IMG/VR virus record: IMGVR_UViG_3300025072_002799 | Location: 32,001 to 96,000 of that record | Source: a virus | Direction: 5' to 3' (one strand) | DNA length: 64,000 nt | Shown: in pieces, positions 3,948 through 52,537 of the stretch | How positions within the stretch are numbered: the first letter of the stretch is position 1 | Layout of the letters: each line of letters begins with the position of its first letter | Translations under genes and position numbers: made by a program | The notes under the pieces: model-generated | What the model saw: the letters and a program-made list of their open reading frames with translations, nothing else | What the model was told of the DNA's origin: nothing | The model's database searches: none

Positions 3948-5495
3948 ATGGCTGCTGATAATAATTGTCCCTTTGACGTAACACCACTAGGACAGTCCGA
4001 ACCTATAGAAAATCAAAATATAGTAAATCTAAATTACACTAATCAAAACTTTTGGTCAATGAAAAGTAGGTTGATTGATTTTATTAGAAATCGTTTTTCA
4101 ACAGATTTCAATGATTTCATTGAATCAGATTTGGCTCTTATGTTGATCGAGTCTTGGTCATTTATAGCAGATACACTCTCTTTCAAAACTGACCAAGTTG
4201 CCAATGAGATTTTCATTGACACCGTAACAGAAATAGAAAATGCCTTCAGACTTTCAAAATTAATGGGTTTTGAACCAACTCCGCCTATAGCAGCAACAAG
4301 TCAATGGAGTGCCGTAATCAATACTCCACTAACTACAGATCTTGTAATTGATGCCCCACTAATCGTAGACGTTGGAAATGTTAAGATAGAGTTATTTCCG
4401 GCAGATGCAAACAATAATCCAATATTTGACGATCCAATTATAATTACAGCAGGAAGCCTAGTTAACGACACAGTTATAGGAGTCGAAGGGAAAACATTTA
4501 CAGATATAGTTACAGGAACCGGAGAGGCAAATCAAACTATTCAGCTAGAGCAATCGCCAGTCATATTTGACTCAATCAGAGTTAGCGTAGACGGAATACC
4601 TTGGGAGCAAGTAGATTATTTCTCTGATTCACAGCCACGTAGAGAATTTAGGGTTGAATTTGATTCAGAATATAATGCTTTTGTTATTTTTGGAAATGAT
4701 ATTGCAGGGCTTTTGCCATCACGAAGTTCTACGATTGAAGCAACATATAGATCTGGTGGTGGCACAGCAGGTAATATTGTTACTGGATTTGCAGCAACAC
4801 AAAGAGGGTTTGATGTTCCAAACGTTCCATTTAGGGTTCCAGTATCATTTAGAAACTTTACCGCTGGCATTGGCGGATATGATGGGGATACCGTTGAAGA
4901 TATTAGAAGAAATCTTCCAAAATTCCTTAGAACACAAGATCGTGCAGTAACAGGGTTGGACTACAAAACATTAGCCGATCTTTTTGCTACTCCATATCAT
5001 GGTCAAGTTGGAAAGTCTACCGCTGTTTTAAGAAATCATGGGTGTGCTGGCAATGTTATTGATTTGTACATTTTGGCACGAGAAGGAGAAAACGGATTAG
5101 TCGAAGCTGGGAATGATCTAAAAGAAGATCTTGCCGATGAACTAGATGTTAAGAAAATGTTTACAGACTTTGTTTGCATCAGAAATGGAGAAGTGATTTT
5201 GTCCGATGTAAACATTGATGTTACTGTAAACAGGTTGCATAGAAACTTTGAAGATGAATTAAGAGAAAGGATTGACCGTCGCATAGATGGATTTTTCAAT
5301 TTAAATTCATGGGAATTCGGAGACAACCTAAAAGAAGCAGACATCATCAAAGCACTTTCTGATATGCGAGAACTAAGTGAAATTGATGTGACATTTACCA
5401 CTGATGACGAGGATAATTCTGGGGACATTGTTGTTGCCAGATACTTTGAAATAATAAGACCTGACACTGTTACAATAACATTTAATTTTGAATAA
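3948..5495 (+). CDS. Baseplate wedge protein (gp6 / baseplate J-like)
   Basis: 'DFNDF.ESD...', 'FGNDIAG..P', 'Y.SGGG.AGN' and 'QDRAVT..DY' motifs. Confidence 0.9.
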   Translation: MAADNNCPFDVTPLGQSEPIENQNIVNLNYTNQNFWSMKSRLIDFIRNRFSTDFNDFIESDLALMLIESWSFIADTLSFKTDQVANEIFIDTVTEIENAFRLSKLMGFEPTPPIAATSQWSAVINTPLTTDLVIDAPLIVDVGNVKIELFPADANNNPIFDDPIIITAGSLVNDTVIGVEGKTFTDIVTGTGEANQTIQLEQSPVIFDSIRVSVDGIPWEQVDYFSDSQPRREFRVEFDSEYNAFVIFGNDIAGLLPSRSSTIEATYRSGGGTAGNIVTGFAATQRGFDVPNVPFRVPVSFRNFTAGIGGYDGDTVEDIRRNLPKFLRTQDRAVTGLDYKTLADLFATPYHGQVGKSTAVLRNHGCAGNVIDLYILAREGENGLVEAGNDLKEDLADELDVKKMFTDFVCIRNGEVILSDVNIDVTVNRLHRNFEDELRERIDRRIDGFFNLNSWEFGDNLKEADIIKALSDMRELSEIDVTFTTDDEDNSGDIVVARYFEIIRPDTVTITFNFE

Positions 5496-19727: not shown

Positions 19728-20587
19728 TGAGAATTAGAAAACACGAAAACAAAAACCATTACATACGAACTCCTGAAGGCGTATGGGTGAGAGACTTTAC
19801 GAAAGTCGGTGTCGTTCCAAAAGACATAAACAGCTTATCTAATCTTGACGATAAGAGAATTCTTCTGAAAAATGAGTTTGAAAACATAAGAAAAAAACTC
19901 AACATTGTAGAAGACATTAGACAAGTCTATAATAATGTAGTCATTGTTTCTGATGGAAACAAATTCAAAGAAAGACATCGCATAATTTCAGATATGCCTA
20001 CAGCAGTTCCAATAGGAGTCAATGGATCTCTCAGAAAATGGGAACTAGCTGGCGATGATTGCCCAGCAGAAAAGCAACGCAACATGTTTTATGTTGTAAA
20101 CAACCCATATGATGAATGCAATAAATATCTTCCTAACGATTCATTCTATCCAAACTGTTTGGCATCTTTAAGAACTAATCCAGATTTCATAAAAGCATAC
20201 AGAGGAGAAGTTTATAGATACTCAACAACGCCAGAAGTGAAGTTTCACAATCCATACAATGATGCAGAGTACACAATAGACGATTACAGAAACTCAATTT
20301 GTGCCGCCATTTGTTTTGCAAATGTGTTCAAAGTTAAAAAATTATTATTACTGTGTTGCGATGATTCATTCGAACAAGAAAGACCAGGATCTATCGAGAC
20401 TGGCAAAGGAACGTGGATGTATCCACAACAAAAAGAATTGCATAACATCATTGACGCTAATCTATTTTGGCTAAAACAAAACGATGTTGAAATTGCAGAA
20501 TATTCTGACGGACCTCATTATAATAACGCTACATACATACAGTCAGATGACGAAGCTATTCAATTTTTTAAGGATGACAATGAATAA
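19727..20587 (+). CDS. DUF115/Maf (sialyltransferase-like) fold protein
   Basis: 'VVIVSDG', 'IGVNGS' and 'NSICAAI.FA..F.VKKLLL.CCD' resemble the Maf/GT29/GT42-type pattern. Confidence 0.4.
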   Translation: MRIRKHENKNHYIRTPEGVWVRDFTKVGVVPKDINSLSNLDDKRILLKNEFENIRKKLNIVEDIRQVYNNVVIVSDGNKFKERHRIISDMPTAVPIGVNGSLRKWELAGDDCPAEKQRNMFYVVNNPYDECNKYLPNDSFYPNCLASLRTNPDFIKAYRGEVYRYSTTPEVKFHNPYNDAEYTIDDYRNSICAAICFANVFKVKKLLLLCCDDSFEQERPGSIETGKGTWMYPQQKELHNIIDANLFWLKQNDVEIAEYSDGPHYNNATYIQSDDEAIQFFKDDNE

Positions 20588-20873
20588 TAATAACAACGAA
20601 GGATTTTTTGACATTAATGAATTCAAGAAGTGGATGGAAGAAGATCCATCCAACAAACAAAAGAGATCTAAGTTCATTGGAATCCAAGTTGAGTCTAAAA
20701 TATCGTCAAGCAAGCTTGTAAACAAAATAGAAACCGAAAATGAAATTGATGAAGTAGTTGAAGACTTTATTGAAAACGGTGGTTTCATCACAAATGTTGA
20801 AGGCAATTGGTTTACAGTTGAAGTAAACTCTGGTGATTTTATTGTTCCAAGAAAATACGTTCGCCGTTCTTAA
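20580..20873 (+). CDS. Hypothetical protein
   Basis: ORF overlapping the upstream stop. It contains 'EFKKWMEE' near the N-terminus. Confidence 0.6.
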   Translation: MNNNNNEGFFDINEFKKWMEEDPSNKQKRSKFIGIQVESKISSSKLVNKIETENEIDEVVEDFIENGGFITNVEGNWFTVEVNSGDFIVPRKYVRRS

Positions 20874-21232
20874 CGACCCTTTCTTATCATAGTTTTTTGA
20901 TGTGGAAGCTTGTCCGTTTTAATGGATGGTGCTTCCATAATCTTTTTCAAATTCATTATAGACGCAGGCGACATAGGGATTTGCTTGTACCCTCTAGACG
21001 CAACAGCCTTTCTAAATTCTTGGTAAGACGAAGCACTCTCTGCCCACACTTCCCACATCATTCTGTTTTTGTGAATTATTGCTTCCATCTCTGACTCTAA
21101 ATCTTGAGGAAGTCCAAGAACCTTAGGGCTTTCCATCTTTGTTGGATTCACCTTTTGAGGAGCGTTTAATATCGCTACCACCTTCACTGCCTTCTTGTCT
21201 CTCCTCGCCAGATAAACGTATATCTTTTCCAT
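20870..21232 (-). CDS. Hypothetical basic protein
   Basis: ORF with SD GAGGA, convergent with the previous gene. Confidence 0.6.
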   Translation of the reverse strand: MEKIYVYLARRDKKAVKVVAILNAPQKVNPTKMESPKVLGLPQDLESEMEAIIHKNRMMWEVWAESASSYQEFRKAVASRGYKQIPMSPASIMNLKKIMEAPSIKTDKLPHQKTMIRKGR

Positions 21233-21354
21233 TTAATATTTCCTCTAAAAAGACTTCTAATACCACTCTTTTATAAACAGAGTTTTCTTTGCCAAGTAAA
21301 TCAAAGAAATTGACCAATCCCTCTGATGCTTCTACTTCTTTTTTTTGTTTTTTC

Positions 21355-21672
21355 ATGTTTATTACCGATTACATAAAAGTCAAAGACAAATACCTGCTAT
21401 GCTACTTTGGATCTGATGAAAAGTGCATAAACCAATTAATATATTTACGCCCACTGATTGAAAAAGAATTCCCAGGCATTACAATATTCCTATCATTCTC
21501 TGACAGGATACTAGAAAGCAATTTCATCAAAAGATCAAAAATAGATAAGTACGAATGCAAAAAATATGCTTATGTTAGATCTCTAAAAGGAGAAGATCCA
21601 ATAAGACAATTGTTGGAAGAGTCTCATTTATGCCATTTGAATAAAGAATTGCCAACTGAATTGCGTATATAA
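21355..21672 (+). CDS. Hypothetical protein
   Basis: ORF filling the gap. The ATG at 21355 is preferred over the TTG at 21289. Confidence 0.45.
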   Translation: MFITDYIKVKDKYLLCYFGSDEKCINQLIYLRPLIEKEFPGITIFLSFSDRILESNFIKRSKIDKYECKKYAYVRSLKGEDPIRQLLEESHLCHLNKELPTELRI

Positions 21673-21724
21673 ACTTGTAAGCTGGAGTATTAGTAAGGCT
21701 CAATTATTCACAGGGAGTATACAA

Positions 21725-22345
21725 ATGAGCGTATTTAGAGTAAAATTAAACAACACCGACCAGGGAGTAATGGATCTTGATCCAAGCACCGCATCTGCTG
21801 ACGTGTTGGGAAGTCAAATGGACCCTTCGATTCAACGTAGCGTATACGTAATGGGACCAAATCTAATCAATCGTCTTTTGGTTGATGGTTCAACTTTCAC
21901 CGACTGCAATTACTGGAAGCGTTTTGCGTATCCACAAGTTGCTTTGAATGAAGCAATTGTTGAAGTTGTAACCGATGACGGAAGCGTATATTCTGACGTT
22001 GCATCAGAAAACACCTTCCCAGTTGTGTATGATCGTAGCATTGCTGCGGCTGACACCTATGGTGACAACGAAATTGACATCGTAACTGATCATGGCGGAT
22101 ATGCTGTCTTCACCCAGATCACCAATCAGGAAACTGCTGGTGGCGGATTGGACATCAAGGTTGGTCTTAATGGTAGCGTTGGTACGCCAGCAGCCATCTT
22201 CGACCTAGTAGCTGGCGACACTCAGATTTTCAACGCTGGTGACTTGAGCGTAAGCTTGATCCAGTTTGATAATAGTGTTTCTGGTGCCGGTGGCCCAGTT
22301 GATGTTCAGGTTCTTCTATCTGTTCGTTCGGTATGCAATAGCTAA
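21725..22345 (+). CDS. Putative highly expressed virion protein
   Basis: Strong SD, a TATATAA box upstream, its own terminator, and acidic beta-rich composition. Confidence 0.5.
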   Translation: MSVFRVKLNNTDQGVMDLDPSTASADVLGSQMDPSIQRSVYVMGPNLINRLLVDGSTFTDCNYWKRFAYPQVALNEAIVEVVTDDGSVYSDVASENTFPVVYDRSIAAADTYGDNEIDIVTDHGGYAVFTQITNQETAGGGLDIKVGLNGSVGTPAAIFDLVAGDTQIFNAGDLSVSLIQFDNSVSGAGGPVDVQVLLSVRSVCNS

Positions 22346-22369
22346 ACCAAGCTATAAAACCAAAATAAG

Positions 22370-22397
22370 AAAGCTCAGCGAAAGCTGGGCTTTTTTT
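22370..22397 (+). terminator. Rho-independent terminator
   Basis: AAGCTCAGC-GAAA-GCTGGGCTT followed by a T-run. Confidence 0.85.
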
Positions 22398-22420
22398 ATG
22401 CACCAACATAAATAACTTTA

Positions 22421-22918
22421 ATGCATTATTATAAAATACTAGAAGTTCCAATTACGGCGACAACAGAAGAAATAAATGTTGCTTACAGAAATCTTGCAAT
22501 CAAATACCACCCAGATTCAAGCAAAGACCCAAATAGCGTTAAAAAATTCAAAGAAATAGCTGCCGCTCATGAAACCTTAAGTGACAAAGGAAAGCGTGCG
22601 CAATACAATCTGAGATATTCAATATTAATATCACCGCCTCCAAAACAAAGACCAGTTCAAAAACCTTCGTCCAAGCCAAAGCCAACTCCTAAGCCAACTC
22701 CTAAGCCAAAATCTGACCCTCAAAAACAGTATCCTCACAATGTCCATACAATTAATGATGCAAATAAACCAATACCACCGGATTTGAGAGGGACATCATT
22801 AAATGGAGATGTTGGAACTGTAGATTTATGGAAACAATCTGGGCTTGAGGAATATGAAAAGCCTGCCTTTCAATATTATAAAAAACAACCACGACAATCA
22901 AATTTCATTGATCCATAA
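22421..22918 (+). CDS. J-domain (DnaJ-like) protein with Pro/Lys linker
   Basis: 'YYKILEV...AYRNLAIKYHPD...FKEI..AHETLSD..KRAQY' with an intact HPD motif. Confidence 0.9.
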   Translation: MHYYKILEVPITATTEEINVAYRNLAIKYHPDSSKDPNSVKKFKEIAAAHETLSDKGKRAQYNLRYSILISPPPKQRPVQKPSSKPKPTPKPTPKPKSDPQKQYPHNVHTINDANKPIPPDLRGTSLNGDVGTVDLWKQSGLEEYEKPAFQYYKKQPRQSNFIDP

Positions 22919-22932
22919 ACTCTTTTAATTAC

Positions 22933-23889
22933 ATGATAATTAAGAGATCTCTGAAACAATCAAATAAACCAGAAGATTTATCTATAAAAGACTTTTACCA
23001 AATGAGAAACAAGGTATTGGTCTTAAGACAAACTGGTGGCATAGGAGACATTCTTATGCAAAGAATGATGTTTGAGGATTTTAAACGTATATTCCCAGAG
23101 TCGCACATAACTTATTCATGCCCAAGCAAGTACAAATCACTAGCAATGAATCACCCGTTCATTGATGAATGGCTTCCATCTGAAGATATTGACCTGTCAA
23201 AGTATCTACTGTATTTCAACATCACAACTGCATGTAATCGTCACGAAATGAGAGTTGCACCATTAAGCGATAAACATAGAAGCGATATATGGGCAAATAA
23301 TTGTGGAGCCATTCTATCTAACCACAATATGCACATTACAATTGAAGAAGAAAATAAAAAATACGCCCAAGAAAGGCTAAAAGAATTAAACACTGAAGGA
23401 AAACCAACCGTATGTTTTTGCCCAATATCTGCGATGTTGGGCAAAAACCTGCAAAGCGAGCAAATAACAGACACAGTTAAAGGTCTTTGGGATATGGGTC
23501 TTTTTGTTTATTCAACTCACATCAGAGATATTCCAGAACTTACTAAACTAAAAGTGCCAGTAATCAAGGATATATCCGTATCTCAGTGGATGGGAGTCAT
23601 TGATGCTGCTGACCATGTTGTTAGTGTTGATACTGGAGCATTTCATTTAAGTGGGGGACTCGGAAAGCCATTAGTTGGGGTTTTTGGATGGACTGATGGA
23701 AAGGTGTATGGGCGTTATTATAAATTCGCTTTGGTACAAAGACACAGAGATGATGGCGATTGGGATTGCGGACCTTGCTACAGTTGGCATGGATGTCCTA
23801 AGGAAAGGCAAAACAGAAGAAAACCCTGCATTACCAGCATTACGGCAGATAACATACTAAAAGCGACAGAGCAAATACTGGATAAATAG
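22933..23889 (+). CDS. Glycosyltransferase family 9 (heptosyltransferase-like)
   Basis: 'GGIGDILM', 'VSVDTGAFHLSGGLGKPLVGVFG' and a C-terminal 'CGPC...C...C'. Confidence 0.88.
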   Translation: MIIKRSLKQSNKPEDLSIKDFYQMRNKVLVLRQTGGIGDILMQRMMFEDFKRIFPESHITYSCPSKYKSLAMNHPFIDEWLPSEDIDLSKYLLYFNITTACNRHEMRVAPLSDKHRSDIWANNCGAILSNHNMHITIEEENKKYAQERLKELNTEGKPTVCFCPISAMLGKNLQSEQITDTVKGLWDMGLFVYSTHIRDIPELTKLKVPVIKDISVSQWMGVIDAADHVVSVDTGAFHLSGGLGKPLVGVFGWTDGKVYGRYYKFALVQRHRDDGDWDCGPCYSWHGCPKERQNRRKPCITSITADNILKATEQILDK

Positions 23890-23903
23890 CATATATAAGA
23901 ATT

Positions 23904-24146
23904 ATGGCTCAATTAGTAAAATCACAACAAGTACAGGTCACTACGTCTAAGGGCGAGTGTCACATCACTTTGGATATAAACATCACTCTTAACCACCAAG
24001 GATTAATCCAACAGGTTGGCGTAGATGCTACGGAAGCTACTATGATAGATAAGAAGGAAAAAAAGGACCCAGAAGAAGAGAAGTTCAAATGGGAAATACC
24101 CGATTTTGAAGATGGTCCATCAGAAAAAATTGATTTTGGTAAATGA
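23904..24146 (+). CDS. Small hypothetical protein upstream of the actin-like gene
   Basis: ORF preceded by an ATATATA box and co-oriented with the ATPase gene. Confidence 0.6.
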   Translation: MAQLVKSQQVQVTTSKGECHITLDINITLNHQGLIQQVGVDATEATMIDKKEKKDPEEEKFKWEIPDFEDGPSEKIDFGK

Positions 24147-24162
24147 TTAAAAGGAGATAGTT

Positions 24163-25173
24163 ATGAGTGCTCGCGGAATGGACATGGGGACGTACAATTT
24201 AATTGCTTGTCATCGTGATGATAATGGAGATTTCGTACACAAGAGGGAAATCAATGCTTTTTTGGAATTGCCACTAGAAGAAAGATTTGTTTTCAACATG
24301 ATGAAAAAGTCTGGCGTCCCTCTCATTGAACGTGAAAAGGTTGCATACGCTTTGGGCGAAGCTGCCGTAAAGATGGCTTATACAATGCCTAATATAGATT
24401 TAAAACGCCCAATGAAAGATGGGTGTTTGAATCCTCAAGAAAAAGATGCTATGAATATCATAAAAGTTATGATTCACAGTTTGATAGGCGAAATTGAAGA
24501 AGATGGAACATTAATTTATTACTCTATTCCGGCTAACGCCATCAACGAGGAAACCGATGCCGATTATCATTCAGAAGTTTTGGCTTCCATATTGAGATCT
24601 TATAGTTCATCAGATGGTTACAAACTAGATCCAAGACCAATCAATGAAGGTTTGGCTTTGGTGTTTTCTGAGTTGGGAGAAAAGCAATTTACGGGAATTG
24701 GAATTAGTTGTGGCGCAGGAATGGTGAACGTATGCTTTTCCGTATTTTCCCACCCAGTGTTTAGCTTCTCAATTGTCAATAGTGGAGACTGGATTGACAA
24801 GATGGCTGCTAAAGCGGCTGGAGAGAATGCAACATATATAAATCAAAGAAAAATGACTGTTGCCCTGGATAAAGAGCCAGAAGATATTGTTGAAAGAGCC
24901 ATTCAAACCCAATACAGATTGATGATTATGAATACAGTCAAACACATAAAGGAAGGTTTGTCCGATGCAGGCAAAAAGGCTCGTACTGGCGCACCAATAG
25001 ATATTGTTATCGCTGGTGGAACGTCTTCTCCTCAAGGATTCGACACATTGTTTGCAGAAGTCCTTAAAGAGATGGACCTGCCAATTGATGTAGGAAATAT
25101 AATTCGCCCCAAAGATCCGCTTTACAGTGTAGCGAAAGGTTGCTTAATTGCAGCAGAAAACTCTGTGTCTTAA
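24163..25173 (+). CDS. Actin-superfamily ATPase (volactin/MreB/ParM-like)
   Basis: Phosphate-1 'GMDMGT', connect-1 'PINEGLA', phosphate-2 'ISCGAGMVN', adenosine 'IAGGTS' and connect-2 'DPLYSVAKG'. Confidence 0.88.
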   Translation: MSARGMDMGTYNLIACHRDDNGDFVHKREINAFLELPLEERFVFNMMKKSGVPLIEREKVAYALGEAAVKMAYTMPNIDLKRPMKDGCLNPQEKDAMNIIKVMIHSLIGEIEEDGTLIYYSIPANAINEETDADYHSEVLASILRSYSSSDGYKLDPRPINEGLALVFSELGEKQFTGIGISCGAGMVNVCFSVFSHPVFSFSIVNSGDWIDKMAAKAAGENATYINQRKMTVALDKEPEDIVERAIQTQYRLMIMNTVKHIKEGLSDAGKKARTGAPIDIVIAGGTSSPQGFDTLFAEVLKEMDLPIDVGNIIRPKDPLYSVAKGCLIAAENSVS

Positions 25174-25199
25174 AGTCAATTAGAAAAGTAGGAGATAAG

Positions 25200-26051
25200 A
25201 TGGGAAATGAGAAAAAGGTGTATGTCGATGACATAAGTTGCATGCAGCCAAAGTTAAGAAAGTCATCAGTGATTTCTACAAGGGAATTCAATGATACCTT
25301 AAGTGATGAAGATGTTGACTATAACGAAAGGTTGGTTAAAGCATCATTGGAATTTAAGGTAACGCCAGAAAAAATAAAAAAAGTAATTTGTCCTGAGTTG
25401 TCGGCTAAAAAGATGTGTGAAAGTCCAGCTTATGAAAATTTTGGAGATTCGGAAAAGGATTTTGGAAAAGATGGTGTAATCGACTTAAACAAAGGCATTC
25501 CAATAACAGGTCACGATGGAGTGCCATCTCGTGATCCTGGCGGAGTATTGCCAGGAACGGGTGGAGGAACCACAGTAGATGAGTACGTCCATCTTAGAAA
25601 TTTGATTAAACATGCTTATGGACATAATTCAGCAACTATCATACCTGATAAAAAGCCAGAAATGTACGAATTCAAAGAATGGACTGAGGAAGAGTTGAAT
25701 TCACTTAAAGAAAAGGAGGGATATTTCGAATTGTCGATGACATATGAAAATGATGATGATTTATCAATGCATGAAATATTTGAAATTGCAAATGGTCCAG
25801 AAGACAGTGAATGTTACAAAAATTTGATTTCAGACTTAAATGAAGAGTTTCCAAAAATGGACTTTACGTGGATCTGCGCAGATCTATCAATTGAATGGAA
25901 GTCTGGGATATTGAATGGGAACAAAGTAATAACGGCTATCAATAAGCCTATTGTTGACGAACTAAAACAAACGCTTGAAAAGATAATGGATGATGAAACA
26001 AAAGTATACGATATTGTAAAGCGATCCATTATAGAAGCACTAGATTTTTAA
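25200..26051 (+). CDS. Hypothetical acidic protein
   Basis: ORF with SD GGAG and ATG at 25200. Confidence 0.55.
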   Translation: MGNEKKVYVDDISCMQPKLRKSSVISTREFNDTLSDEDVDYNERLVKASLEFKVTPEKIKKVICPELSAKKMCESPAYENFGDSEKDFGKDGVIDLNKGIPITGHDGVPSRDPGGVLPGTGGGTTVDEYVHLRNLIKHAYGHNSATIIPDKKPEMYEFKEWTEEELNSLKEKEGYFELSMTYENDDDLSMHEIFEIANGPEDSECYKNLISDLNEEFPKMDFTWICADLSIEWKSGILNGNKVITAINKPIVDELKQTLEKIMDDETKVYDIVKRSIIEALDF

Positions 26052-26069
26052 AGAAAGAAAGAGAAAGAA

Positions 26070-26525
26070 ATGGGAAAAGTTTATAAACACGTTAGCGACT
26101 TGGGAATGGCTGCTTATTTGTTGATGCATGGCTACGATGTGGCTGGCAAGAAAGGCAGATCATATTACTTCAATATCAATGAAGATGATGTAAAAGCATT
26201 AGATGATTTAACATTGGATTATTTCAATGAGAGAAACTATCATCTATTTGATCACTGCATCATGTCTATGAAGAAAGTCCTTGAAGTTAAAATGTCATCC
26301 AATTCACTTAAGTCTGTAAATGACTTAGGATTGGCTGCTTATATCTTTATGCATGATTTTGATATTGCTGGAAGACAGGGAGGGAGCTTCTTTTTCAAGG
26401 TAGAAGATAATGAATTAGAAGAAAAATTCAATAAATTGACAATGGAATATTTGTCGAGTCAATTTCATAGATTTGATCATTGCATCATGGCACTGAAAAA
26501 AGTCCCTGAGTATTCTCCTAAATAA
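26070..26525 (+). CDS. Tandem DUF5659-like domain protein
   Basis: Internal duplication of 'DLG.AAY..MH..D.AG..G.S..F...FDHCIM..KK'. Confidence 0.6.
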   Translation: MGKVYKHVSDLGMAAYLLMHGYDVAGKKGRSYYFNINEDDVKALDDLTLDYFNERNYHLFDHCIMSMKKVLEVKMSSNSLKSVNDLGLAAYIFMHDFDIAGRQGGSFFFKVEDNELEEKFNKLTMEYLSSQFHRFDHCIMALKKVPEYSPK

Positions 26526-26563
26526 AGAATATGCGACTCATATATAAATGAAAAGGGACAATT

Positions 26564-28054
26564 ATGAGAACTTTCGGACAATATCTTGAAGAAAATGCAC
26601 CTGAAGAACCAGTTATGGCCACTGCTGTGGAGCCAGTTGACTTAGATGCAAGCTTGGATGCAATGGTAAACTCTTTAGTAGTAGACCTTAAAAAACGCAT
26701 TAAATCCGCAATTCCACAAAGGGAAAAGAAGAAAAACCTTTTTGACCGATTTGGGAAGTGGTGGAAAGATATGAACGACCCAAATTATGAGACGCCCTAC
26801 ACACCTGGACATCGCATGAATCAAAATCGTGCTGCTGGGCTTCATACTGGGCAAGCCAGCGATTTGGGAGAGTCCGTGATCCCTATTGAGGTTTATAATT
26901 TCTTTAAGGAGTCTGCCGAGAAGATTTGCGAAGCAGAAGCTCATGACATAGATTCGCCAAATTTGCATGGAGATCCAAGCAGATATGGAACTTATGAATT
27001 TAGCCCAAATCCAGAAGTTGCAGCAGCAGCTAGAGCGGGAAGACAGCCTCCACAATCATCTCAGCACTTAGGTCCTGGCATGACTCATGTTGGAGGGAAT
27101 TATTATCACAATCAAGAAACAGGGAAGACTCAACAGATCAATCCAGTGGCTCAGTTGGGAATTTATTTAGATGGTGAATTTAAGAAAAAATTGAAGGGAA
27201 TATTAAGCGCCCATATGAAAAACGCACAAAGCAACAAAGACATAGAAGCTGGAAACATACCTGCCGCACCAAAAGCGCCTCAGGCTGCTGGTCCAAATGA
27301 TCCACCGACAGCACCAACAGCACCAAAGTTTTCTGATGGACCCGCTTCTGAAAGACCTCCTGTTGGACCTGGACCTTCATTAACAGATGACAAAGCAACT
27401 TCCGCTTCTTCTGCAAAGCCAGTTTTAAGTCCAAATGACGATCACAAAAAACTAGTGGCTTCTGCCGACAGCAAAAAAACAGACGAAGAAAAGGCTGAAG
27501 TGTATTTGCCAAATTACAAACAAAATCACACTGCACAAGAAGTAATGGATGCTGTAGATAAACTTATGGATGGTGGAAAAGCTTTTGATGATACAATTGT
27601 AAGTGTGCAAGATTTTAGAGATGACTTAAAAACTGTGTTAGGTGTCAAAATAAAACCTAAATCAACCCCATCTGACTTCAATCAAGTTGATGAAGATGAA
27701 AGTAGCAGTAAGTTAATCAACATGCTTGGGAACAAAAGTGATGAACAACAGGCTGAATTGCTTTCTCCTGGTTATGAAGAAAAAGGTTATAAAGTTGATG
27801 ATATTTTGCAAGGCGCTAAGAGTCTTCAACAACATGACAAGAAGAAGAAAACTGTTAAGCAATTCCGTGATGGACTTGATCAATATCTTGGATTGACAAT
27901 TGGACACGCTGAATCCAATATGGTTGACAGATACAAGCAAATGTTGAGAGAGCAAGATCTAAAAGGCTACATGACACCAGTGGTAAGATGGAAAGTGGAC
28001 GATTTGCCCGTTTCTGAACGAGCAAATTATTACCGTCAACTAATGCGTAATTAA
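26564..28054 (+). CDS. Putative internal head protein (N-terminal capsid-targeting-like tag)
   Basis: Starts MRTFGQYLEE, has a Pro-rich disordered middle, and an ATATATA box upstream. Confidence 0.5.
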   Translation: MRTFGQYLEENAPEEPVMATAVEPVDLDASLDAMVNSLVVDLKKRIKSAIPQREKKKNLFDRFGKWWKDMNDPNYETPYTPGHRMNQNRAAGLHTGQASDLGESVIPIEVYNFFKESAEKICEAEAHDIDSPNLHGDPSRYGTYEFSPNPEVAAAARAGRQPPQSSQHLGPGMTHVGGNYYHNQETGKTQQINPVAQLGIYLDGEFKKKLKGILSAHMKNAQSNKDIEAGNIPAAPKAPQAAGPNDPPTAPTAPKFSDGPASERPPVGPGPSLTDDKATSASSAKPVLSPNDDHKKLVASADSKKTDEEKAEVYLPNYKQNHTAQEVMDAVDKLMDGGKAFDDTIVSVQDFRDDLKTVLGVKIKPKSTPSDFNQVDEDESSSKLINMLGNKSDEQQAELLSPGYEEKGYKVDDILQGAKSLQQHDKKKKTVKQFRDGLDQYLGLTIGHAESNMVDRYKQMLREQDLKGYMTPVVRWKVDDLPVSERANYYRQLMRN

Positions 28055-28977
28055 TTTCCGTGTTCTGCCGTAACCCATCTGATAGTTTTGCTTTCAGATC
28101 TCATGAACACTGAGTTAGTGGTCGGTTTCGCTCTATTCCACTTAACACCTCTCAACAGACTGCCATCGGTGATTCCCGTTCCAGCAAACGCACACTCTCC
28201 TTTAACTAATTCATTTTCATCCAAAATAGGCTCAGAAGACTCTCCTTCTTTAGTGCATTCTTGACCTTGTAGCCCTCCACCCAAGCATTTGATCGCACAA
28301 GCGGACAGAATAGCCTCTGGCGAGCCTCCAATGCCATAAAGGATGTCTATGTCACTATCTGGAAGGCAAGCCGCAACAGCCCCAGAAACGTCACAATCTT
28401 GAATTAATTTAATTCTGCACCCTAGTTCTCTTAATTCTTTGATTGCCTCATGATGTCGTGGTCGATCTAAAATGCATACCAACACCTGTTCTGGCTCCTT
28501 TCCTGTTGCCGAACAAACCAATTCTATGGTTCTTTCTAGTGGGTCGTTTAATTTTAATTCTACTTTACTTGCTATTTCAGGTCCGTATGCCAACTTTCTC
28601 ATATAATACGAAGACGGACTAAACATAGCTCCTTCTAGTGCGACAGAAATGACGCTCATAGCTTCTGGTCCAGAAGTTACAGTTGGAGTTGTTCCTTCAA
28701 TTGGATCTATTGCTATATCATTGAATTTTCCGTGGTATCCATCGCATGACCCCCACCTACTTCCGATTTTCTCTCCTGCGAACAAGCCATATGACTTATC
28801 CTTTTCTCCTTCGCCTATTACAATCTTTCCAGCAAAGTCCATTCCATTAAGACGATCTCTCATTGCATCAGTAGCGGCTTTATCTGATTCTAGTTTATTT
28901 CCGCTTCCGACCCACTTTGAGCCTGCTATTGCTCCTGCTTCTGTAACTCTAATTAAATCAAGGCTTATATGTTTCAT
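28051..28977 (-). CDS. glpX: Class II fructose-1,6-bisphosphatase
   Basis: 'RVTEA.AI', 'VIGEGEKD', 'DIAIDPIEGT', 'LDRPRH', 'GIGGSPE' and 'TGITDGSLLRGV'. Confidence 0.95.
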   Translation of the reverse strand: MKHISLDLIRVTEAGAIAGSKWVGSGNKLESDKAATDAMRDRLNGMDFAGKIVIGEGEKDKSYGLFAGEKIGSRWGSCDGYHGKFNDIAIDPIEGTTPTVTSGPEAMSVISVALEGAMFSPSSYYMRKLAYGPEIASKVELKLNDPLERTIELVCSATGKEPEQVLVCILDRPRHHEAIKELRELGCRIKLIQDCDVSGAVAACLPDSDIDILYGIGGSPEAILSACAIKCLGGGLQGQECTKEGESSEPILDENELVKGECAFAGTGITDGSLLRGVKWNRAKPTTNSVFMRSESKTIRWVTAEHGN

Positions 28978-29192
28978 TGTTGTTCCGTTAATGAGTATGT
29001 TTTATTTCTAAATCGGTCACATGAAACCCAAAAGTTTCTAACGCCATCAACAACAGGAAGATGACCAGAACTTGGATGTATCCAATATTTTATTCCTGGC
29101 TTAGGATTAGACCAACATGTGTGTGGATAACCAGGAAGTATTATGCCGGGACTTGTTGTGTTTGAAGGTGGAAACCCTTTCAGAATTGCCAT
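28974..29192 (-). CDS. Hypothetical protein
   Basis: Coupled small ORF with SD GGAGGA. Confidence 0.5.
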   Translation of the reverse strand: MAILKGFPPSNTTSPGIILPGYPHTCWSNPKPGIKYWIHPSSGHLPVVDGVRNFWVSCDRFRNKTYSLTEQQ

Positions 29193-29656
29193 TAATCCTC
29201 CTCTTTGAATTTCTTAGCCAGATTAGATAGTTGATTAACATCTACAAATGGACTTTTATTTTCTGGTTCTTCTTCATCCAGCCAAGTTGGTTCTTTTTCT
29301 ATCTTTGGCATTTCAGGCTTTTGTTCTTCACGATGTGCGAATTTAGCGCCTTTCTTTTCTTCCATTTTCTTTTCATATTCATCCATGATTGCATCATAAT
29401 TGGGGTCATCTTTTTTAAGAACTTGTTCCTCTGCGAATCCGATGAGATGCGTCCAGGTGTAGAAATTCTTGCTCAAAGTTGTTGGGTGCGTAAGCCAAAT
29501 TCCCAATTCACAAATATAGTCCACTCTTCCAACGAAGTAGTCTGTCATTTGTGAATCTTTGAAGTCCCAATTTATATTAGCAACAAACATTGTTACAACT
29601 TTTCCAACAAAATAGTTGGATAAGCGATTTAGTTCTGTTTCGTTTGGTGTTTCCAT
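29192..29656 (-). CDS. Hypothetical protein
   Basis: ORF in an operon with the primase gene. Confidence 0.6.
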   Translation of the reverse strand: METPNETELNRLSNYFVGKVVTMFVANINWDFKDSQMTDYFVGRVDYICELGIWLTHPTTLSKNFYTWTHLIGFAEEQVLKKDDPNYDAIMDEYEKKMEEKKGAKFAHREEQKPEMPKIEKEPTWLDEEEPENKSPFVDVNQLSNLAKKFKEED

Positions 29657-29663
29657 AATTTCC

Positions 29664-30686
29664 TTATCTAGGATTTGGCCATTTAGTGAACGGCACTGTT
29701 GTCTTGTTGATGTATTGTTTTATTGTTTCTGGATTTATGACCTGCAACATAGCATTCCAATCTTTGAATCCTTCTGGTGGCGAAACCTGTCTAACTTCTA
29801 TTCCATTGGAATTCAAAGAATCACCAATAACCTTTAGAGCACTTTTGCCAGCACTGTCATTGTCTAATGCAATGCATACATTGAACCCACGCAACATCTC
29901 TAGCTGCTTAGGAGTTAATGTTTTGCCTCCACAGGCAACAGAGGCACGCCCACAAGCTATTGTCAGGCTAATGGAGTCCAATTCTCCTTCGGTCAAGAAT
30001 ACCCAACCATCATTCGGCCAATAAGTAAAAAATAAAACGTCTCTTTTTCCAACTCCATAGACCTCTTCTTCTGGACCGAGGTACTTTGGCTTGGCACTAT
30101 CTGAAAGATGTCTTCCATTCCAATAAATTAAATTTCCATCTTTATCGTAATATGGAATGATGATTCTATTTCTGTACTTGTCTTGAGTGCAGAATTCTAT
30201 ATTAAACTTTTCGTAATCTATTTTCCTAGATTCAAGATAGGCAATTGCTTCTGAACCTTTATAGTGTTGTGTCAATTGAGACAAAGGATATGTGAATGGA
30301 GGAAGCCTCATGTGTGGAGGCTTTTCTGGATCAATCTCTATCTTCGCTGGCTTTTTGTCAGACTTTTTATTCGCATTAAAAAAATCGTCTAGATCGCTGT
30401 AGACTTTTGACATTTCTGTTTCGCCACGGATTTGATAAACAGCCTCTTCGTAAGGCAATCCATCAACCTTCATGACTAAACCAACTAAGGTTCCTCTCTT
30501 GTCACTCTTCCAGCACCTAAACACGCCGTCTTCTCTGCCATTCTTTCCCCCATCGACATTACACCAGAGGTGATTTTTATTGTCGTCCGCAAAGGGGCTA
30601 TTAACCATGATCTCTCGACCATTGGTTTTTACATTGTCAAAACGGCTCTCAGCCCATGACAGAAAAGCATCGTAATCTATTGACAT
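29664..30686 (-). CDS. DNA primase (DnaG/gp61-like, TOPRIM)
   Basis: 'YLESRKI', 'RNRIIIPY', 'PKYL', 'LTEGELD', 'ALDNDSAG' and 'KDWN'. Confidence 0.9.
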   Translation of the reverse strand: MSIDYDAFLSWAESRFDNVKTNGREIMVNSPFADDNKNHLWCNVDGGKNGREDGVFRCWKSDKRGTLVGLVMKVDGLPYEEAVYQIRGETEMSKVYSDLDDFFNANKKSDKKPAKIEIDPEKPPHMRLPPFTYPLSQLTQHYKGSEAIAYLESRKIDYEKFNIEFCTQDKYRNRIIIPYYDKDGNLIYWNGRHLSDSAKPKYLGPEEEVYGVGKRDVLFFTYWPNDGWVFLTEGELDSISLTIACGRASVACGGKTLTPKQLEMLRGFNVCIALDNDSAGKSALKVIGDSLNSNGIEVRQVSPPEGFKDWNAMLQVINPETIKQYINKTTVPFTKWPNPR

Positions 30687-30691
30687 AATTT

Positions 30692-31057
30692 TTACTCTGT
30701 GAAGCCAGATTCCAAACTTATGAAATTGATGTCTGAACTAGAAGCCCTAACTGGGAGCAAAAATATAGCAATATCGTCAGGAAGTTTTTTGTTTGCTTTT
30801 TCTAGATCTCCAAGCAATTTATCTTTCATTCTCTCCGCAAGATTAATACCCTTTTCTGAAGAAAGTGTACCAATATTTACATTCATTGCTAAAATGCCTC
30901 TGATCTCTGTTGGATTTGCGGCATAGGGTTTGTCGTCTTCGTGCATATTTGCATCCATCTTTGCCTCCTCTTGACAATATCCGTCTGGTCTGCAATTAAA
31001 TTCTTCACCCACATATAATTCGCCACCAACGCCATTATTCAAATTTTCTGCTGCCAT
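30692..31057 (-). CDS. Hypothetical protein
   Basis: ORF between the methyltransferase and primase genes. Confidence 0.5.
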   Translation of the reverse strand: MAAENLNNGVGGELYVGEEFNCRPDGYCQEEAKMDANMHEDDKPYAANPTEIRGILAMNVNIGTLSSEKGINLAERMKDKLLGDLEKANKKLPDDIAIFLLPVRASSSDINFISLESGFTE

Positions 31058-45938: not shown

Positions 45939-47870
45939 ATGACAAATGAGAAAATTGAAAATAATGACGATGGGCATATCCCACGTCATGCGCCACCCGT
46001 AGATAACGGCAAAGACTGGGCAAAATTAGGATTTCGTAGATTCGAGTCTTTTGCGGAGAAGTGGGAAGACTATTACGACTCTTTAGAAGATTTCTATACT
46101 AGCGAATTTGATCCAAATTATTTTAAATTTGAGCAATGGGAACTAGAAATTGATCCCAAAGAAACTGAAGATGATGTTGAAGCTTACGCTGATTATGACA
46201 GACATGGAGAAGTCATTGAAACTGATAAAACAAGGGAAGAATGGCAAAAGTGCGCACAAAGCTTTCCTTACTTTTGTCATAAGTACGTAAAGATTGGGCA
46301 CCCTAAAAGGGGGTTAGTTCCATTTAGGCTGTACAATTATCAGCGTCGAGTAATTGGAGAATACGACCAGCATCAGTTTAATATCATCTCAAAATTCCGA
46401 CAAGGTGGATTAACGACAGTATCTTCTCTGTGGGGACTGTGGAGATGCATGTTTCGATTAGACCAAAATATTATGGTCTTATCAAAAACAGATCGTGAAG
46501 CTATTGCTGCTGGAGAAATTGCTGCTAGAGCTTTGGAACACCTTCCGAAGTGGCTGAAGCCAAAATTTGGAAAAAACAATGACCACCAGCGACAATTTAA
46601 GGAAACTGGTTGCTGGCTTTATTTCTACACGCCCGAAGCTGCTCGTGGTAAATCTATTACATATTTGATCATTGACGAAGCTGCGTTCATTAACGATATG
46701 CATAGACACTGGAAATCCATGTATCCAACGCTCTCGACTGGGGGTAACTGTATTGTTGTCTCAACGGTTAATGGTATTGGTAATTGGTATGAAGACACCT
46801 ACACAAGAGCAAAAGAGGGTCGAAATGAATTTAATATTATCGACCTTGATTATTACGAACATCCTGACTATCACGATGATGACTGGGTTCGAAAGACAAA
46901 GGCAAACTTAGGAGAAAAAGGTTGGAAGCAGGAAGTCCTTAGACACTTCCTTGGATCTGGTGAAACCTATATCAATAGCGAAATCATTGGCGAGTTGATG
47001 CAATTAACTCAGAAAACGCCACCATCGAGAAAATTATTTACTAAATTCACCAATGCCGACAAAGACATTGATTACATGGATGAATTCAATCGTGGAGCAT
47101 TATGGGTGTGGAAGGAGCCAATAGATGGTCATGAATATATAATGGGAGTAGATTGCGCAGAGGGAATTGGAGAAGATAATGACAATAGCACATTTCAAAT
47201 ACTTGATATGTCAACATTGGAACAAGTAGCAGAATTTTATTCAAATGTTACACCTCCTCATGTATTTGCACAAATAGTTAATGAAGTTGGAGTTATGTAC
47301 AATACAGCAATTGTTGTTGTTGAAGCTGCTGCCCCTGCTGGTGGTGCCGTACTAAATAGCCTTCACCATAAATTATATTATGAAAACCTTTATTGGGACA
47401 CCGGAAAAACAAGAGCTTCCGGTCCTGGCTTAAAGTCAAACCAAGCTGTACGACCAGTTATTTTGGAATGCATGTCATCTAGACTTCTTGACAAAACTCT
47501 AAAACTATATAGCACGCGATTAGTTGATGAAATAAAGACATTTATCTACAATGGTCAAAAAAGAAGGGCTGAGGCTTTGGCTGGTAAGCACGATGATGCA
47601 ATTATGGCTTTATGCATTGCATTGTATGCTAGAGAGTCCATGTCAAGGGACGTTCCAGTTGGATCAGAGATGCCAGATGAACTTCAAAGTGTTTTGGACT
47701 CGTCAGTTTACAAAGAAATTAAAGAAGAGTTGAAACGTGGCGCTCCTATAAATTGGCTAGAAGATGATGGATCGGACGAAGATTTACTCGGATATAATGA
47801 AGATCAGAACGCACTTTGGGATTATAAGCCTAAATATCATAAACTACTTAGAGAATTTGGATGGTGGTAA
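45939..47870 (+). CDS. Terminase large subunit (gp17-like)
   Basis: 'LYNYQ', Walker A variant 'KFRQGGLTT', Walker B 'LIIDEAAF', 'VST.NG', 'MGVD.AEG' and 'HDDAIMA'. Confidence 0.95.
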   Translation: MTNEKIENNDDGHIPRHAPPVDNGKDWAKLGFRRFESFAEKWEDYYDSLEDFYTSEFDPNYFKFEQWELEIDPKETEDDVEAYADYDRHGEVIETDKTREEWQKCAQSFPYFCHKYVKIGHPKRGLVPFRLYNYQRRVIGEYDQHQFNIISKFRQGGLTTVSSLWGLWRCMFRLDQNIMVLSKTDREAIAAGEIAARALEHLPKWLKPKFGKNNDHQRQFKETGCWLYFYTPEAARGKSITYLIIDEAAFINDMHRHWKSMYPTLSTGGNCIVVSTVNGIGNWYEDTYTRAKEGRNEFNIIDLDYYEHPDYHDDDWVRKTKANLGEKGWKQEVLRHFLGSGETYINSEIIGELMQLTQKTPPSRKLFTKFTNADKDIDYMDEFNRGALWVWKEPIDGHEYIMGVDCAEGIGEDNDNSTFQILDMSTLEQVAEFYSNVTPPHVFAQIVNEVGVMYNTAIVVVEAAAPAGGAVLNSLHHKLYYENLYWDTGKTRASGPGLKSNQAVRPVILECMSSRLLDKTLKLYSTRLVDEIKTFIYNGQKRRAEALAGKHDDAIMALCIALYARESMSRDVPVGSEMPDELQSVLDSSVYKEIKEELKRGAPINWLEDDGSDEDLLGYNEDQNALWDYKPKYHKLLREFGWW

Positions 47871-49891: not shown

Positions 49892-52537
49892 ATGGCTTGG
49901 TGGGATTTCTACAAATTATGGTCTTATACTAGAAGACAAGACCCGTTTTCACAAAAACTTCAAAACATAAACATTAGCGGTGCAGGCGTAACACAGCCTG
50001 ACGCTATACCAGATGTTCGTCAAGGTGGCGAATTCTGGAGTGGTTCAAAAGGAGTCATCCGTATGCGGGACTCCAATGATTTTGTTGATTTATCTACGGT
50101 TCAGAATCGCGTTTCTAGATATAAAGAATACGAACGATTAAGAGCAATGCCTGAAATAGAGACTGTAATGCAGATCTTTTCAGACGAAGCATGTGTGGCT
50201 GGCAATACTAAAATTGCCACCCTTGAGCATGGACTCAAGACAATTGCATGGCTTGAAGAACACAAAAGAGGCGAAAGATTCCCTGTTTACTGCTGGGATT
50301 TCTCAAAAGGAGATTACACAATCGGTTGGGCTTCCGAACCTCGTGTTGTAAAAGAAGCGGAGACAGTAAGAGTTAAATTTGATAATGGAGATGCAATTGT
50401 CTGTACCAAAGACCACAGATTCCTCTTAAGAGATGGAACATGGGCAGAGGCAGGCGATTTGGGCTTGGGATCTGAAACCATGCCATTCTACAGACTCAAG
50501 GCTGATACGTTCCTAACAGAAAATAAAAGAAGACAATTTCCTCGCATCTTTACATTCAAAGATGGATGGAAGCATGAGAGATGGTTTGTAAATCAGTGGA
50601 GAGATGGAGAGGTTGACCCACATACTCAAAAGTTGATGGAAATCATACAGATGATTGGTGCTGGGCTTAATACCCGTCAAATAGAAGCAAAGACAAGTCA
50701 CCAATGGTGTACAATTAAAAAATGGCTAGAAAAAGAAGGCTTTAATTGGAAAGACCTACAGATCCTTTACAAAAAGAAGGACCGTCGTAGAGTTATAGAT
50801 GTAGAGCCTTGGACAACTCAAAAGGTTTATGATCTCTCAGTTGAAAAGCATGAAAACTTCTGTACTGACTCTTGCGTTTTGCACAATTGCCAGAAAAATG
50901 ATGAAGGACATGTAATTGACATACACTGTTCGAATAAGAAAATAAAAGATGAACTAGAGTTCCTTTTCTACCATCGAGACATGTTGAACATCAATCGAAG
51001 GTTGTGGAGTTGGGCGAAAAATTTATTTATCTTTGGCGATTTCTTTATTGAATGCATATTGAATCCAGACAACCCTAAGGCTGGAATATTAAAGGTTCTG
51101 CCCTTACCTCCTGAAAGTGTATTCAGAATTGAAACCACAAAAGGAAAGTTGATTGAATTTCAACAAGGAAAAGAAGGTCCAGACTTCCAAGCGTTAACAA
51201 GAGCGCCTATTACGCAATCTACGGAGGCAGAACTTCAACAGTCAACAGCATTAAGATTCCATCCAGACCAAATCATCCATATGAAAATTGGCGAAGATAG
51301 AAACGCATTTTATCCATACGGAGTGTCTTTGGTCGAATCCGCAAGGGGTCCAGCACATCAATTGAGATTGATGGAAGATGCTATGGTCGTATATCGCCTC
51401 ACGAGAGCGCCTGAAAGACGTGTATTTTACGTTGATGTCGGTCAATTGCCTCCATTTAAAGCAGAAGCTTTCATGGAACGCATGAAAGACATGTATCGTA
51501 AAAAGAAGGTTACTGGAAGAGGAAACAGAGAAGGTGGAAATGCTGTCGAAGAAAGATGGCACGCACCCGCTCAAGATGAAGATTTCTGGATTCCAATTAG
51601 ACCAAATACAAACACTCGTGTTGAAACTCTCCCAGGTGCTCAAAACTTAGGAGAAATTGACGATGCAGTTTACTTTAGAAATAAATTATTCACCGCTTTG
51701 CAATTCCCAAAAAATTACTTAACTCAGGAAGACCCTGGACAGACAAGAATTACACTTTCTGCGCAAGATGTTAAATTTGCTCGAACTGTGGAAAGATTGC
51801 AAGATCCTATGACTGATGGACTAGTAGAAATTGCTCACAGACACTTGAGTTTGCGCGGGTTCCCAGAAGAAATGTTCGATGATTTGAAAATTAAAATGAC
51901 GCCCCCATCTGATTGGCGAGAGCTAAGTAGAGCGGAAGTTATTACAAATCGTTTGAACAATGCAAGTAATCTCAAGGGATCTCAATTAATGCCTGACTAT
52001 GATATTTATATCGACTGGCTTAAGTTAGCACCTGAGGAAGCAGAAGAAAAATTGTCTCGTCTTAAGATCCAAAAACTTGAAGATCTAAAACTTCAAGTTC
52101 TGGCTTCTAATCCAGCACTATTAGGTGTTGGACAGCCTGGACAAAGCGATATGGAAGTTGGGGCTGATGGAGCAGGACCAAACCCAATGATGGGACCAGA
52201 AGGGGGAATGCCACCAGGAGGAGAAATGGGTGGGATGCCAGGAATGCCACCAGGAGGAGGAGGAATGCCACCTGGAGGACCGCCGCCTACAATGGCTATG
52301 TCTGATGGTGGACCACCTCCTGTGCCAGGAGCAGAGGGACAAGATCCTAATCAAATGCCGCCTGATCCTAATATGCAAGATCCAAACCAGCAAATGCCAC
52401 AAGGACCTGGAACAATGCCAGCACAGCCAATAGCTTTGCCTGATGTCGAAAAAGAAGACATAAAGAAATATGATCTTGAAATTCAAGATTATGAGTCTGA
52501 GCAGGATGCTGAAGATGTTGATTATAGCGAAATGTAA
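49892..52537 (+). CDS. Portal protein (gp20-like) with intein and Pro/Gly/Met-rich tail
   Basis: 'QLRLMEDAMVVYRLTRAPERRVFYVDVG.LP..KAE', 'EDFWIP.R', 'TLPGAQNLGEIDD..YF..KL'. Confidence 0.95.
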   Translation: MAWWDFYKLWSYTRRQDPFSQKLQNINISGAGVTQPDAIPDVRQGGEFWSGSKGVIRMRDSNDFVDLSTVQNRVSRYKEYERLRAMPEIETVMQIFSDEACVAGNTKIATLEHGLKTIAWLEEHKRGERFPVYCWDFSKGDYTIGWASEPRVVKEAETVRVKFDNGDAIVCTKDHRFLLRDGTWAEAGDLGLGSETMPFYRLKADTFLTENKRRQFPRIFTFKDGWKHERWFVNQWRDGEVDPHTQKLMEIIQMIGAGLNTRQIEAKTSHQWCTIKKWLEKEGFNWKDLQILYKKKDRRRVIDVEPWTTQKVYDLSVEKHENFCTDSCVLHNCQKNDEGHVIDIHCSNKKIKDELEFLFYHRDMLNINRRLWSWAKNLFIFGDFFIECILNPDNPKAGILKVLPLPPESVFRIETTKGKLIEFQQGKEGPDFQALTRAPITQSTEAELQQSTALRFHPDQIIHMKIGEDRNAFYPYGVSLVESARGPAHQLRLMEDAMVVYRLTRAPERRVFYVDVGQLPPFKAEAFMERMKDMYRKKKVTGRGNREGGNAVEERWHAPAQDEDFWIPIRPNTNTRVETLPGAQNLGEIDDAVYFRNKLFTALQFPKNYLTQEDPGQTRITLSAQDVKFARTVERLQDPMTDGLVEIAHRHLSLRGFPEEMFDDLKIKMTPPSDWRELSRAEVITNRLNNASNLKGSQLMPDYDIYIDWLKLAPEEAEEKLSRLKIQKLEDLKLQVLASNPALLGVGQPGQSDMEVGADGAGPNPMMGPEGGMPPGGEMGGMPGMPPGGGGMPPGGPPPTMAMSDGGPPPVPGAEGQDPNQMPPDPNMQDPNQQMPQGPGTMPAQPIALPDVEKEDIKKYDLEIQDYESEQDAEDVDYSEM
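50192..50887 (+). mobile_element. Intein (232 aa) in the portal
   Basis: Block A 'CVAGNT', block B 'CTKDHRFL', block F 'VYDLSV..HENF' and block G 'VLHN' followed by Cys+1. Confidence 0.92.

Follow-up and report, generated by a model that had tools for sequence, protein, structure and literature searches.

A volactin-family actin conserved in a clade of huge tailed phages probably forms a phage-made filament

How do the largest phages (350–670 kb) organize replication and assembly? The phage tubulin PhuZ, the prophage actin AlpC, and volactin in Haloferax are already known. PhuZ is a cytoskeletal NTPase that positions the replication compartment of phiKZ-like jumbo phages (PMC4244570, PMC7950403). 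Efficient replication and transport of viral DNA in the C. glutamicum prophage CGP3 require its AlpC, which works with a small adaptor encoded next to it (PMC4446434, PMC5539076) and sets the precedent for an actin cytoskeleton in phages. In Haloferax volcanii, VolA (HVO_2015), a member of Pfam family PF25216, forms dynamic filaments that span the cytoplasm (PMC10869688). The founding huge-phage paper mentions tubulin and never actin, and our literature search returned no paper tying volactin, MreB, or actin homologs to huge phages. Here, we describe a volactin-family actin of 336 aa and its neighbors (positions 23904–26525) in a 64,000-nt stretch of viral DNA, hereafter the window (positions 32,001–96,000 of IMG/VR record IMGVR_UViG_3300025072_002799). 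We consider it reasonably probable that filaments of this actin organize infection in a clade of huge phages without tubulin, assisted by accessory proteins specific to that clade.

A volactin-family actin with intact nucleotide-binding motifs

The 336-aa protein (24163–25173, + strand) is a member of the volactin family and a predicted filament-forming ATPase. It matches the Pfam Volactin profile (PF25216) over positions 2–321 of 321 (E 5.4e-69; 233.6 bits against a cut-off of 35), and repeating the search on the whole record gave 233.2 bits. The only other Pfam match, to MreB_Mbl (PF06723), is partial rather than full length (residues 52–113; 29.6 bits), and no ParM match was found. The first-pass annotation, made from the sequence alone, had preferred volactin to MreB on the strength of several motif strings; the profile searches bear this preference out, and the strings (PINEGLAL...FTGIGISCGAGMVNVC, SGDWIDK, AGGTSSPQGF, and DPLYSVAKGC) all occur in the protein and are conserved across an alignment of 41 family sequences. 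As it had also said, the protein is compact, its whole length of 336 aa leaving out an Hsp70 substrate-binding domain. The phosphate-1, connect-1, phosphate-2, adenosine, and connect-2 elements are all intact, and the invariant columns of the alignment are the nucleotide-binding residues.

The phosphate-2 element sets the family apart. Asp is the phosphate-2 residue of MreB, ParM, and actin. The phage protein has Ser at this position (S182), as do all 180 family rows—the cellular ones among them having been retrieved with a pattern containing GISxGA—whereas all six MreB paralogs have Asp. In the 41 deep-search rows, which were not pattern-selected, the phosphate-2 signature agrees in at least 90%. 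Both G-I-S-x-G-A-G and S/G-G-D-W-I-D signatures are found in the phage protein, and GDWID is conserved in the family. Because the Ser is shared by the whole family, it is not a lesion; the family member from Haloferax forms dynamic filaments in vivo (PMC10869688).

Structure prediction gives a similar picture. The alignment-based AlphaFold2 model of the actin has a predicted local distance difference test score (pLDDT) of 95.1 and a predicted template-modeling score (pTM) of 0.92. Foldseek places Mbl/MreB first, followed by MamK, BeeR, and then eukaryotic actins, and a sequence profile searched against the PDB puts MamK at the top (3.5e-14); a PDB search with the single actin sequence gave no match. 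The top 50 structural matches include no Hsp70 and no kinase, and the best is MamK in its filament state. The best hits are thus MreB/Mbl, MamK, BeeR, and actins and not non-polymerizing ASKHA enzymes, which would have told against the first-pass idea of a phage cytoskeleton.

Could the protein nonetheless be a non-polymerizing actin-fold ATPase—chaperone- or enzyme-like, for instance a partner, resembling the Hsp70 nucleotide-binding domain, of a nearby J-domain protein? The ASKHA superfamily has many ATPases that form no filaments, a DnaJ-domain gene (22421–22918, +; E 1.3e-22) is located two genes upstream of the 80-aa gene that precedes the actin, and the nearest actin matches in the viral structure library BFVD are mostly Hsp70 homologs. 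However, the BFVD matches are weak (template-modeling score about 0.55–0.6; 10–15% identity) and mirror what that library contains, Pfam gives Volactin and not HSP70, and the structural ranking is led by filament-state MamK. The J-domain protein itself (165 aa, with a Pro/Lys-rich tail) is encoded in this window only and in 0 of 82 related loci, and we therefore rejected a link between it and the actin. Taken with these points, a non-polymerizing enzyme strikes us as very improbable.

Distribution in huge phages and in cells

The window derives from a tailed phage, with genes for a large terminase (45939–47870), a portal protein (49892–52537), and a T4-type baseplate wedge (3948–5495). It is part of a 111-kb virus record with a CheckV completeness of 22%, which implies a phage genome of ~500 kb. 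Several studies of marine metagenomes contain DNA nearly identical to it, and seven runs have at least half of the sampled words.

How widespread is this actin among phages? Hundreds of relatives of this phage carry it. A phage reference collection contains only two relatives, both in huge uncultured phages (595 and 485 kb). In IMG/VR, at least 96 contigs, many of them 300–533 kb long, have copies that are 56–70% identical, and a large protein collection yielded 1694 homologs on contigs of up to 673 kb, some of which the JGI pipeline had automatically labeled “actin-like ATPase involved in cell morphogenesis.” All 81 clade copies, on related viral contigs of up to 533 kb, are intact (312–363 aa). 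Across these at least 81 contigs, the actin is the best-conserved gene of its neighborhood: the median identity to the window copy is 62%, compared with 41% for the DNA primase, 41% for a protein resembling glycosyltransferase family 9 (GT9), and 36–45% for the small neighbors. It is single-copy in five genomes, four of which are 97–100% complete. The tubulin/FtsZ domain PF00091 was found in none of five clade records, four of them 97–100% complete. Five records (G000, G070, and G072–G074), including CheckV-complete ones of 390–533 kb, are called “provirus” in IMG/VR yet have T4-like structural modules, and the label may be an artifact of host-region calling.

Beyond this clade, the family extends into cells. 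An exhaustive HMMER search recovered 959 clusters at 50% identity, in which the whole huge-phage clade is one representative and the nearest other clusters are at most 45% identical. Cellular members were found among archaea (Archaeoglobaceae, Methanosarcina, Methanolobus, Thermoplasmatales, and metagenome-assembled genomes [MAGs] of Halobacteriales) and bacteria (Planctomycetota, Omnitrophota, Patescibacteria, Desulfobacterales, and others) by a scan with the single pattern [FY]TG[IVM]GISxGA, the sampling of which is biased and incomplete—Haloferax is not among the members retrieved. A cellular-genome scan with a single acidic representative gave no matches, and a class-level search found the family in 15 of 61 genomes. 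Five bacterial genomes with a volactin gene also encode a true MreB, and the two are therefore paralogs. In each of two Halobacteriales-labeled MAGs, two volactin paralogs stand in tandem about 1.1–1.3 kb apart (G006:C41:12357–15409 and G007:C12:7111–10289).

We inferred a maximum-likelihood tree (IQ-TREE quick search with SH-aLRT support, rooted on the six true MreBs of volactin-carrying bacteria), in which the volactin family is split from MreB with a support of 100 and the huge-phage sequences, including the window copy, form one clade with a support of 99; support from a quick search is less reliable at long branches, and the tree was built without ParM, AlfA, AlpC, or HVO_2015 sequences. 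The clade joins four metagenomic sequences in a larger group (support 100) that includes none of the sampled cellular members. Outside the huge-phage clade, five more volactin-like genes of phages are scattered among bacterial and metagenomic branches, a placement that suggests they were acquired separately. A viral scan with a sister sequence (P0128) gave no match, and a metagenome scan found one sister-group locus (L192). Several phage or metagenomic homologs of ~700 aa have their phosphate-2 motif (G-I-S|C-G-A-G) interrupted by an intein that contains a LAGLIDADG homing endonuclease; carriers are P0121 (61% identical), P0126, P0129, and the sister-group gene L192:4408–6462 on a 231-kb contig. 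Four further family members (P0122, P0135, P0142, and P0146; 669–908 aa) are fused forms, with N-terminal extensions of 340–580 residues that have no Pfam match.

The tree also bears on a different use of such filaments. MreB- or volactin-like filaments could alter the size or shape of the host cell, for example making it larger so that the burst of huge virions can be large, or could redirect the synthesis of its wall, without moving any phage cargo. The huge-phage clade is nested in no cellular group, however, which does not indicate mimicry of a particular host protein, and the actin is not an MreB, given its separate clade and its partial 29.6-bit match. Pfam and PHROG scans showed no RodZ-, MreC-, or MreD-like partner, and volactin filaments span the cytoplasm with dynamics closer to those of ParM than of MreB. 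We therefore hold manipulation of host shape or envelope to be unlikely, if the likeliest of the other roles considered here.

Neighboring genes and the adaptor question

The genes of the interval are all on the + strand and tightly packed, with intergenic gaps of 14–38 nt. The three open reading frames (ORFs) that the first-pass annotation had described here are present (23904–24146, 24163–25173, and 26070–26525, all +); it left unmentioned a fourth, the 283-aa gene at 25200–26051. A Shine-Dalgarno element read from the sequence, AAAGGAG (24150–24156, +), stands 6 nt before the actin ATG, and a similar element, TAAAAGGAGA, precedes another ORF (repeat D4). A scan for promoter and terminator consensus sequences inside the gene block gave no signal above chance, and PHROGs has no family for any protein of the module.

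The 80-aa gene (ORF 23904–24146, +) encodes a small acidic protein (isoelectric point [pI] 4.8), a candidate accessory factor of the actin. A hidden Markov model (HMM) built on the clade finds it in 76 of 81 loci; among the other five, four retain little or no flank on that side (0–1,194 nt). Its stop codon is within −4 to +20 nt of the actin start in most loci and 600–800 nt away in about a dozen. At its N terminus, the protein has a beta-like segment that is conserved (QLIKP..V.V.TK.GE...I.LDLNINLN), and a variable linker joins this to a C-terminal motif that hardly varies, W-x-I-P-D-F-x(3-6)-K-I-x-F-G-K; in its alignment (A3), F78 and G79 are invariant and I65, P66, and F68 occur in at least 90% of rows. 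Pfam and PHROG searches gave no match, and an atlas search gave no usable one. Predicting a complex between the actin (A1) and the 80-aa protein (A3) gave a score of 0.02 and a mark of 0.32, which is evidence neither way. The I-P-x-F motif may resemble the FtsZ C-terminal peptide D-I-P-x-F-L-R, which binds FtsA. In L002, the window's closest relative, the upstream slot (L002:523–1731) is filled by two genes, one for a sulfotransferase-like protein of 270 aa and an unrelated one of 119 aa that abuts the actin start.

Downstream of the actin, the 283-aa acidic protein (25200–26051, +; Shine-Dalgarno element and ATG at 25200, repeat D8) has no Pfam or PHROG match. A similar sequence is found in only one of 82 loci (L002); the gene is a variable insert outside the conserved module. 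The next gene (ORF 26070–26525, +) encodes a 151-aa protein consisting of two copies of an alpha+beta domain of ~75 aa. The duplication, already proposed in the first-pass annotation, is genuine: the DNA repeats D1 and D2 lie 225 nt apart with 78% identity, and alignment shows 30 invariant columns mirrored between the halves. The clade HMM finds this gene in 78 of 81 loci, as a single domain in about 30 and in tandem in about 48, and in the three loci without it, little or none of the flank on that side remains (0–1,194 nt). The domain has the order beta-alpha-beta-beta-alpha-alpha, and the AlphaFold2 model of the protein has a pLDDT of 93.5.

The earlier label of this protein as “DUF5659-like” (PF18903) did not hold, as the match (E 0.059; 13.7 bits) falls short of the cut-off of 23.6 bits and none of 31 orthologs reaches E 0.01; one atlas cluster in which 30% of the members are DUF5659 (score 0.82) is a lead only. 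Matches to LidA_Long_CC in 16 of the 31 orthologs (best E 6e-9, below or near threshold) were set aside as a probable artifact, since they may reflect helical or compositional similarity. Foldseek and a wide structure search returned no convincing relative and no ribbon-helix-helix (RHH), helix-turn-helix (HTH), or other DNA-binding fold, and the protein is near-neutral (pI 6.1).

Are these small proteins, then, the adaptor and DNA-binding partners that the first-pass annotation had envisaged? That they travel with the actin in the clade (76 and 78 of 81 loci) stood up, but neither has a detected DNA-binding fold, neither is basic, and centromere-like repeats were not found nearby. The wider possibility is a system like ParMRC or AlpAC, in which actin, adaptor, and centromere together segregate the phage genome, whether as an episomal prophage or as replicating copies, and one of the small neighbors is the DNA-binding adaptor. 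An actin with a small downstream gene recalls the ParM-ParR and AlpC-AlpA layouts (PMC4446434, PMC5539076), the dynamics of volactin resemble those of ParM, and a tandem or dimerizing small domain could bind repeated DNA. Set against this, a search of 20500–30800 for iterated or centromere-like repeats, which did not extend to the rest of the genome, found none besides the intragenic duplication of the 151-aa gene. Moreover, the 151-aa protein is near-neutral with no DNA-binding fold match, the 80-aa protein is acidic, the actin has no ParM Pfam match, and the genomes have T4-like structural modules of the lytic type. We judge partitioning of this kind improbable, somewhat more so than an effect on host shape.

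Just past the interval, a 496-aa charged and partly low-complexity protein (26564–28054, +) gave no relatives by BLAST or phmmer. Its N-terminal ~100 residues are nevertheless common to genes at the same slot in about 32 related loci. An HMM of this N-domain, trained without the window, matches only this ORF among the six-frame ORFs of the window (E 8.1e-07; 27.8 bits; residues about 26–125), and elsewhere 27 of its 31 matches are directly downstream of the tandem-domain gene. Part of the clade thus has a fourth gene in the block, one that evolves fast. The tail of the family varies in sequence and length, and in 72 of 78 loci a charged ORF of 139–1253 aa fills the slot after the tandem-domain gene.

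Several other genes lie near the module. In five single-domain loci (L023, L024, L045, L053, and L070), the next + ORF (139–142 aa, at about +1270 from the actin start) resembles the 154-aa protein that the window encodes on the other strand (29192–29656, −), which suggests a local rearrangement. A full-length GlpX-type fructose-1,6-bisphosphatase gene (28051–28977, −; PF03320, E 5e-99) is likely an auxiliary metabolic gene, and 12 related loci carry copies at 49–62% identity. The GT9 gene (heptosyltransferase-like; 22933–23889, +) keeps its upstream position relative to the actin module in 57 loci, and its product could modify phage glycans or the host envelope.

A putative phage cytoskeleton and its known counterparts

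We return to the reading favored at the outset, that actin filaments organize infection in these huge phages. It starts from what is directly established: family membership, intact motifs, fold, strong conservation, phage context, and gene order. The 336-aa protein would be a functional nucleotide-binding actin and a core gene of widespread, huge (about 350–670 kb) T4-like tailed phages. By homology to volactin, MamK, MreB, and BeeR, it would polymerize in the infected cell into a cytoskeletal filament made by the phage, and judging from sequence, these huge phages probably do build their own actin filaments inside the host. Such a filament may position replicating DNA or assembly sites, or move some cargo that can so far only be guessed at, where very large virions are built, and would then do with actin what the PhuZ spindle does with tubulin. 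The cotranscribed 80-aa protein, the protein with the 75-aa domain, and, in part of the clade, the protein with the N-domain and charged tail might serve as clade-specific filament regulators or linkers, roles that we offer as speculation.

Several points weigh against this reading. The actin fold includes members that do not polymerize, none of the models here shows polymerization, and filament interfaces cannot be read from sequence. Neither RNA nor protein evidence of expression was found; the public runs listed for the window sequence include no RNA runs. L002 lacks the 80-aa gene upstream of its actin despite 1.7 kb of sequence being present there, and inserts separate the actin from the 151-aa ortholog by about 0 to 2.4 kb across loci. 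The first-pass annotation had asked whether the neighborhood is conserved in related phages: it is kept within the colinear clade, but the small genes are absent beside five more distant phage volactin loci and one sister-group locus. Even within the clade, the g206, GT9, p154, and primase genes are likewise syntenic, and with the whole region colinear, the linkage of the actin to its neighbors may be plain inherited gene order.

How might the parts work together? A more specific and distinctly tentative version is a clade-wide actin cytoskeleton in which the W-x-I-P-D-F motif of the 80-aa protein docks onto an actin-fold partner, the 75-aa domain acts as a dimer or in tandem, and the charged protein is a MamJ-like linker to cargo. 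If the likeness to the FtsZ peptide holds, the 80-aa protein could bind either the phage actin or division proteins of the host. It is possible, at the same tentative level, that this cytoskeleton is a counterpart of the PhuZ spindle that evolved independently in huge phages without tubulin.

Whatever its exact role, the actin comes from a different and recently named family, and in this abundant, globally distributed clade of tubulin-less huge phages it is a single-copy core gene with strong conservation. The volactin family now ranges beyond haloarchaea into many archaea, several bacterial phyla, and phages. As material for studying the evolution of actin filament systems, the locus offers an actin that is compact and folds well, together with candidate regulators, and an actin-based viral cytoskeleton becomes directly testable through heterologous expression.

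How does the locus compare with described systems? The resemblance to PhuZ is one of function, by analogy; the fold differs (tubulin/FtsZ), and PF00091 is absent from four near-complete clade genomes. AlpC/AlpA, as described, is encoded by a temperate actinobacterial prophage and operates through alpS sites and a DNA-binding adaptor, whereas the actin here is of another family and is found in huge T4-like phages, with no DNA-binding partner found in fold searches and no repeat site in 20500–30800. ParMRC likewise pairs an actin-fold ATPase with a small adjacent gene, and volactin dynamics are ParM-like; unlike ParMRC, this locus shows no ParM family match, no centromere repeats, and no detected RHH or HTH adaptor. 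MreB/Mbl form a separate clade (support 100) and have Asp at phosphate-2 where the phage actin has Ser.

The nearest structural relative, MamK, works in magnetotactic bacteria with the acidic linker MamJ, which ties magnetosomes to MamK. It is 16–18% identical to the phage actin and of a different Pfam family; by analogy, we infer that the charged 496-aa protein may be a counterpart of MamJ. Cellular volactins are closer in sequence, at about 35–40% identity, although the phage protein belongs to a deep clade of its own with metagenomic sequences and is not nested among the archaea. In contrast to VolA, it is phage-encoded and has clade-specific small neighbors, and the rod-to-disk shape role of VolA need not carry over. 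What the phage actin shares with VolA is membership in the family over its full length, the phosphate-2 Ser, the GDWID motif, and a grouping that sets both against MreB.

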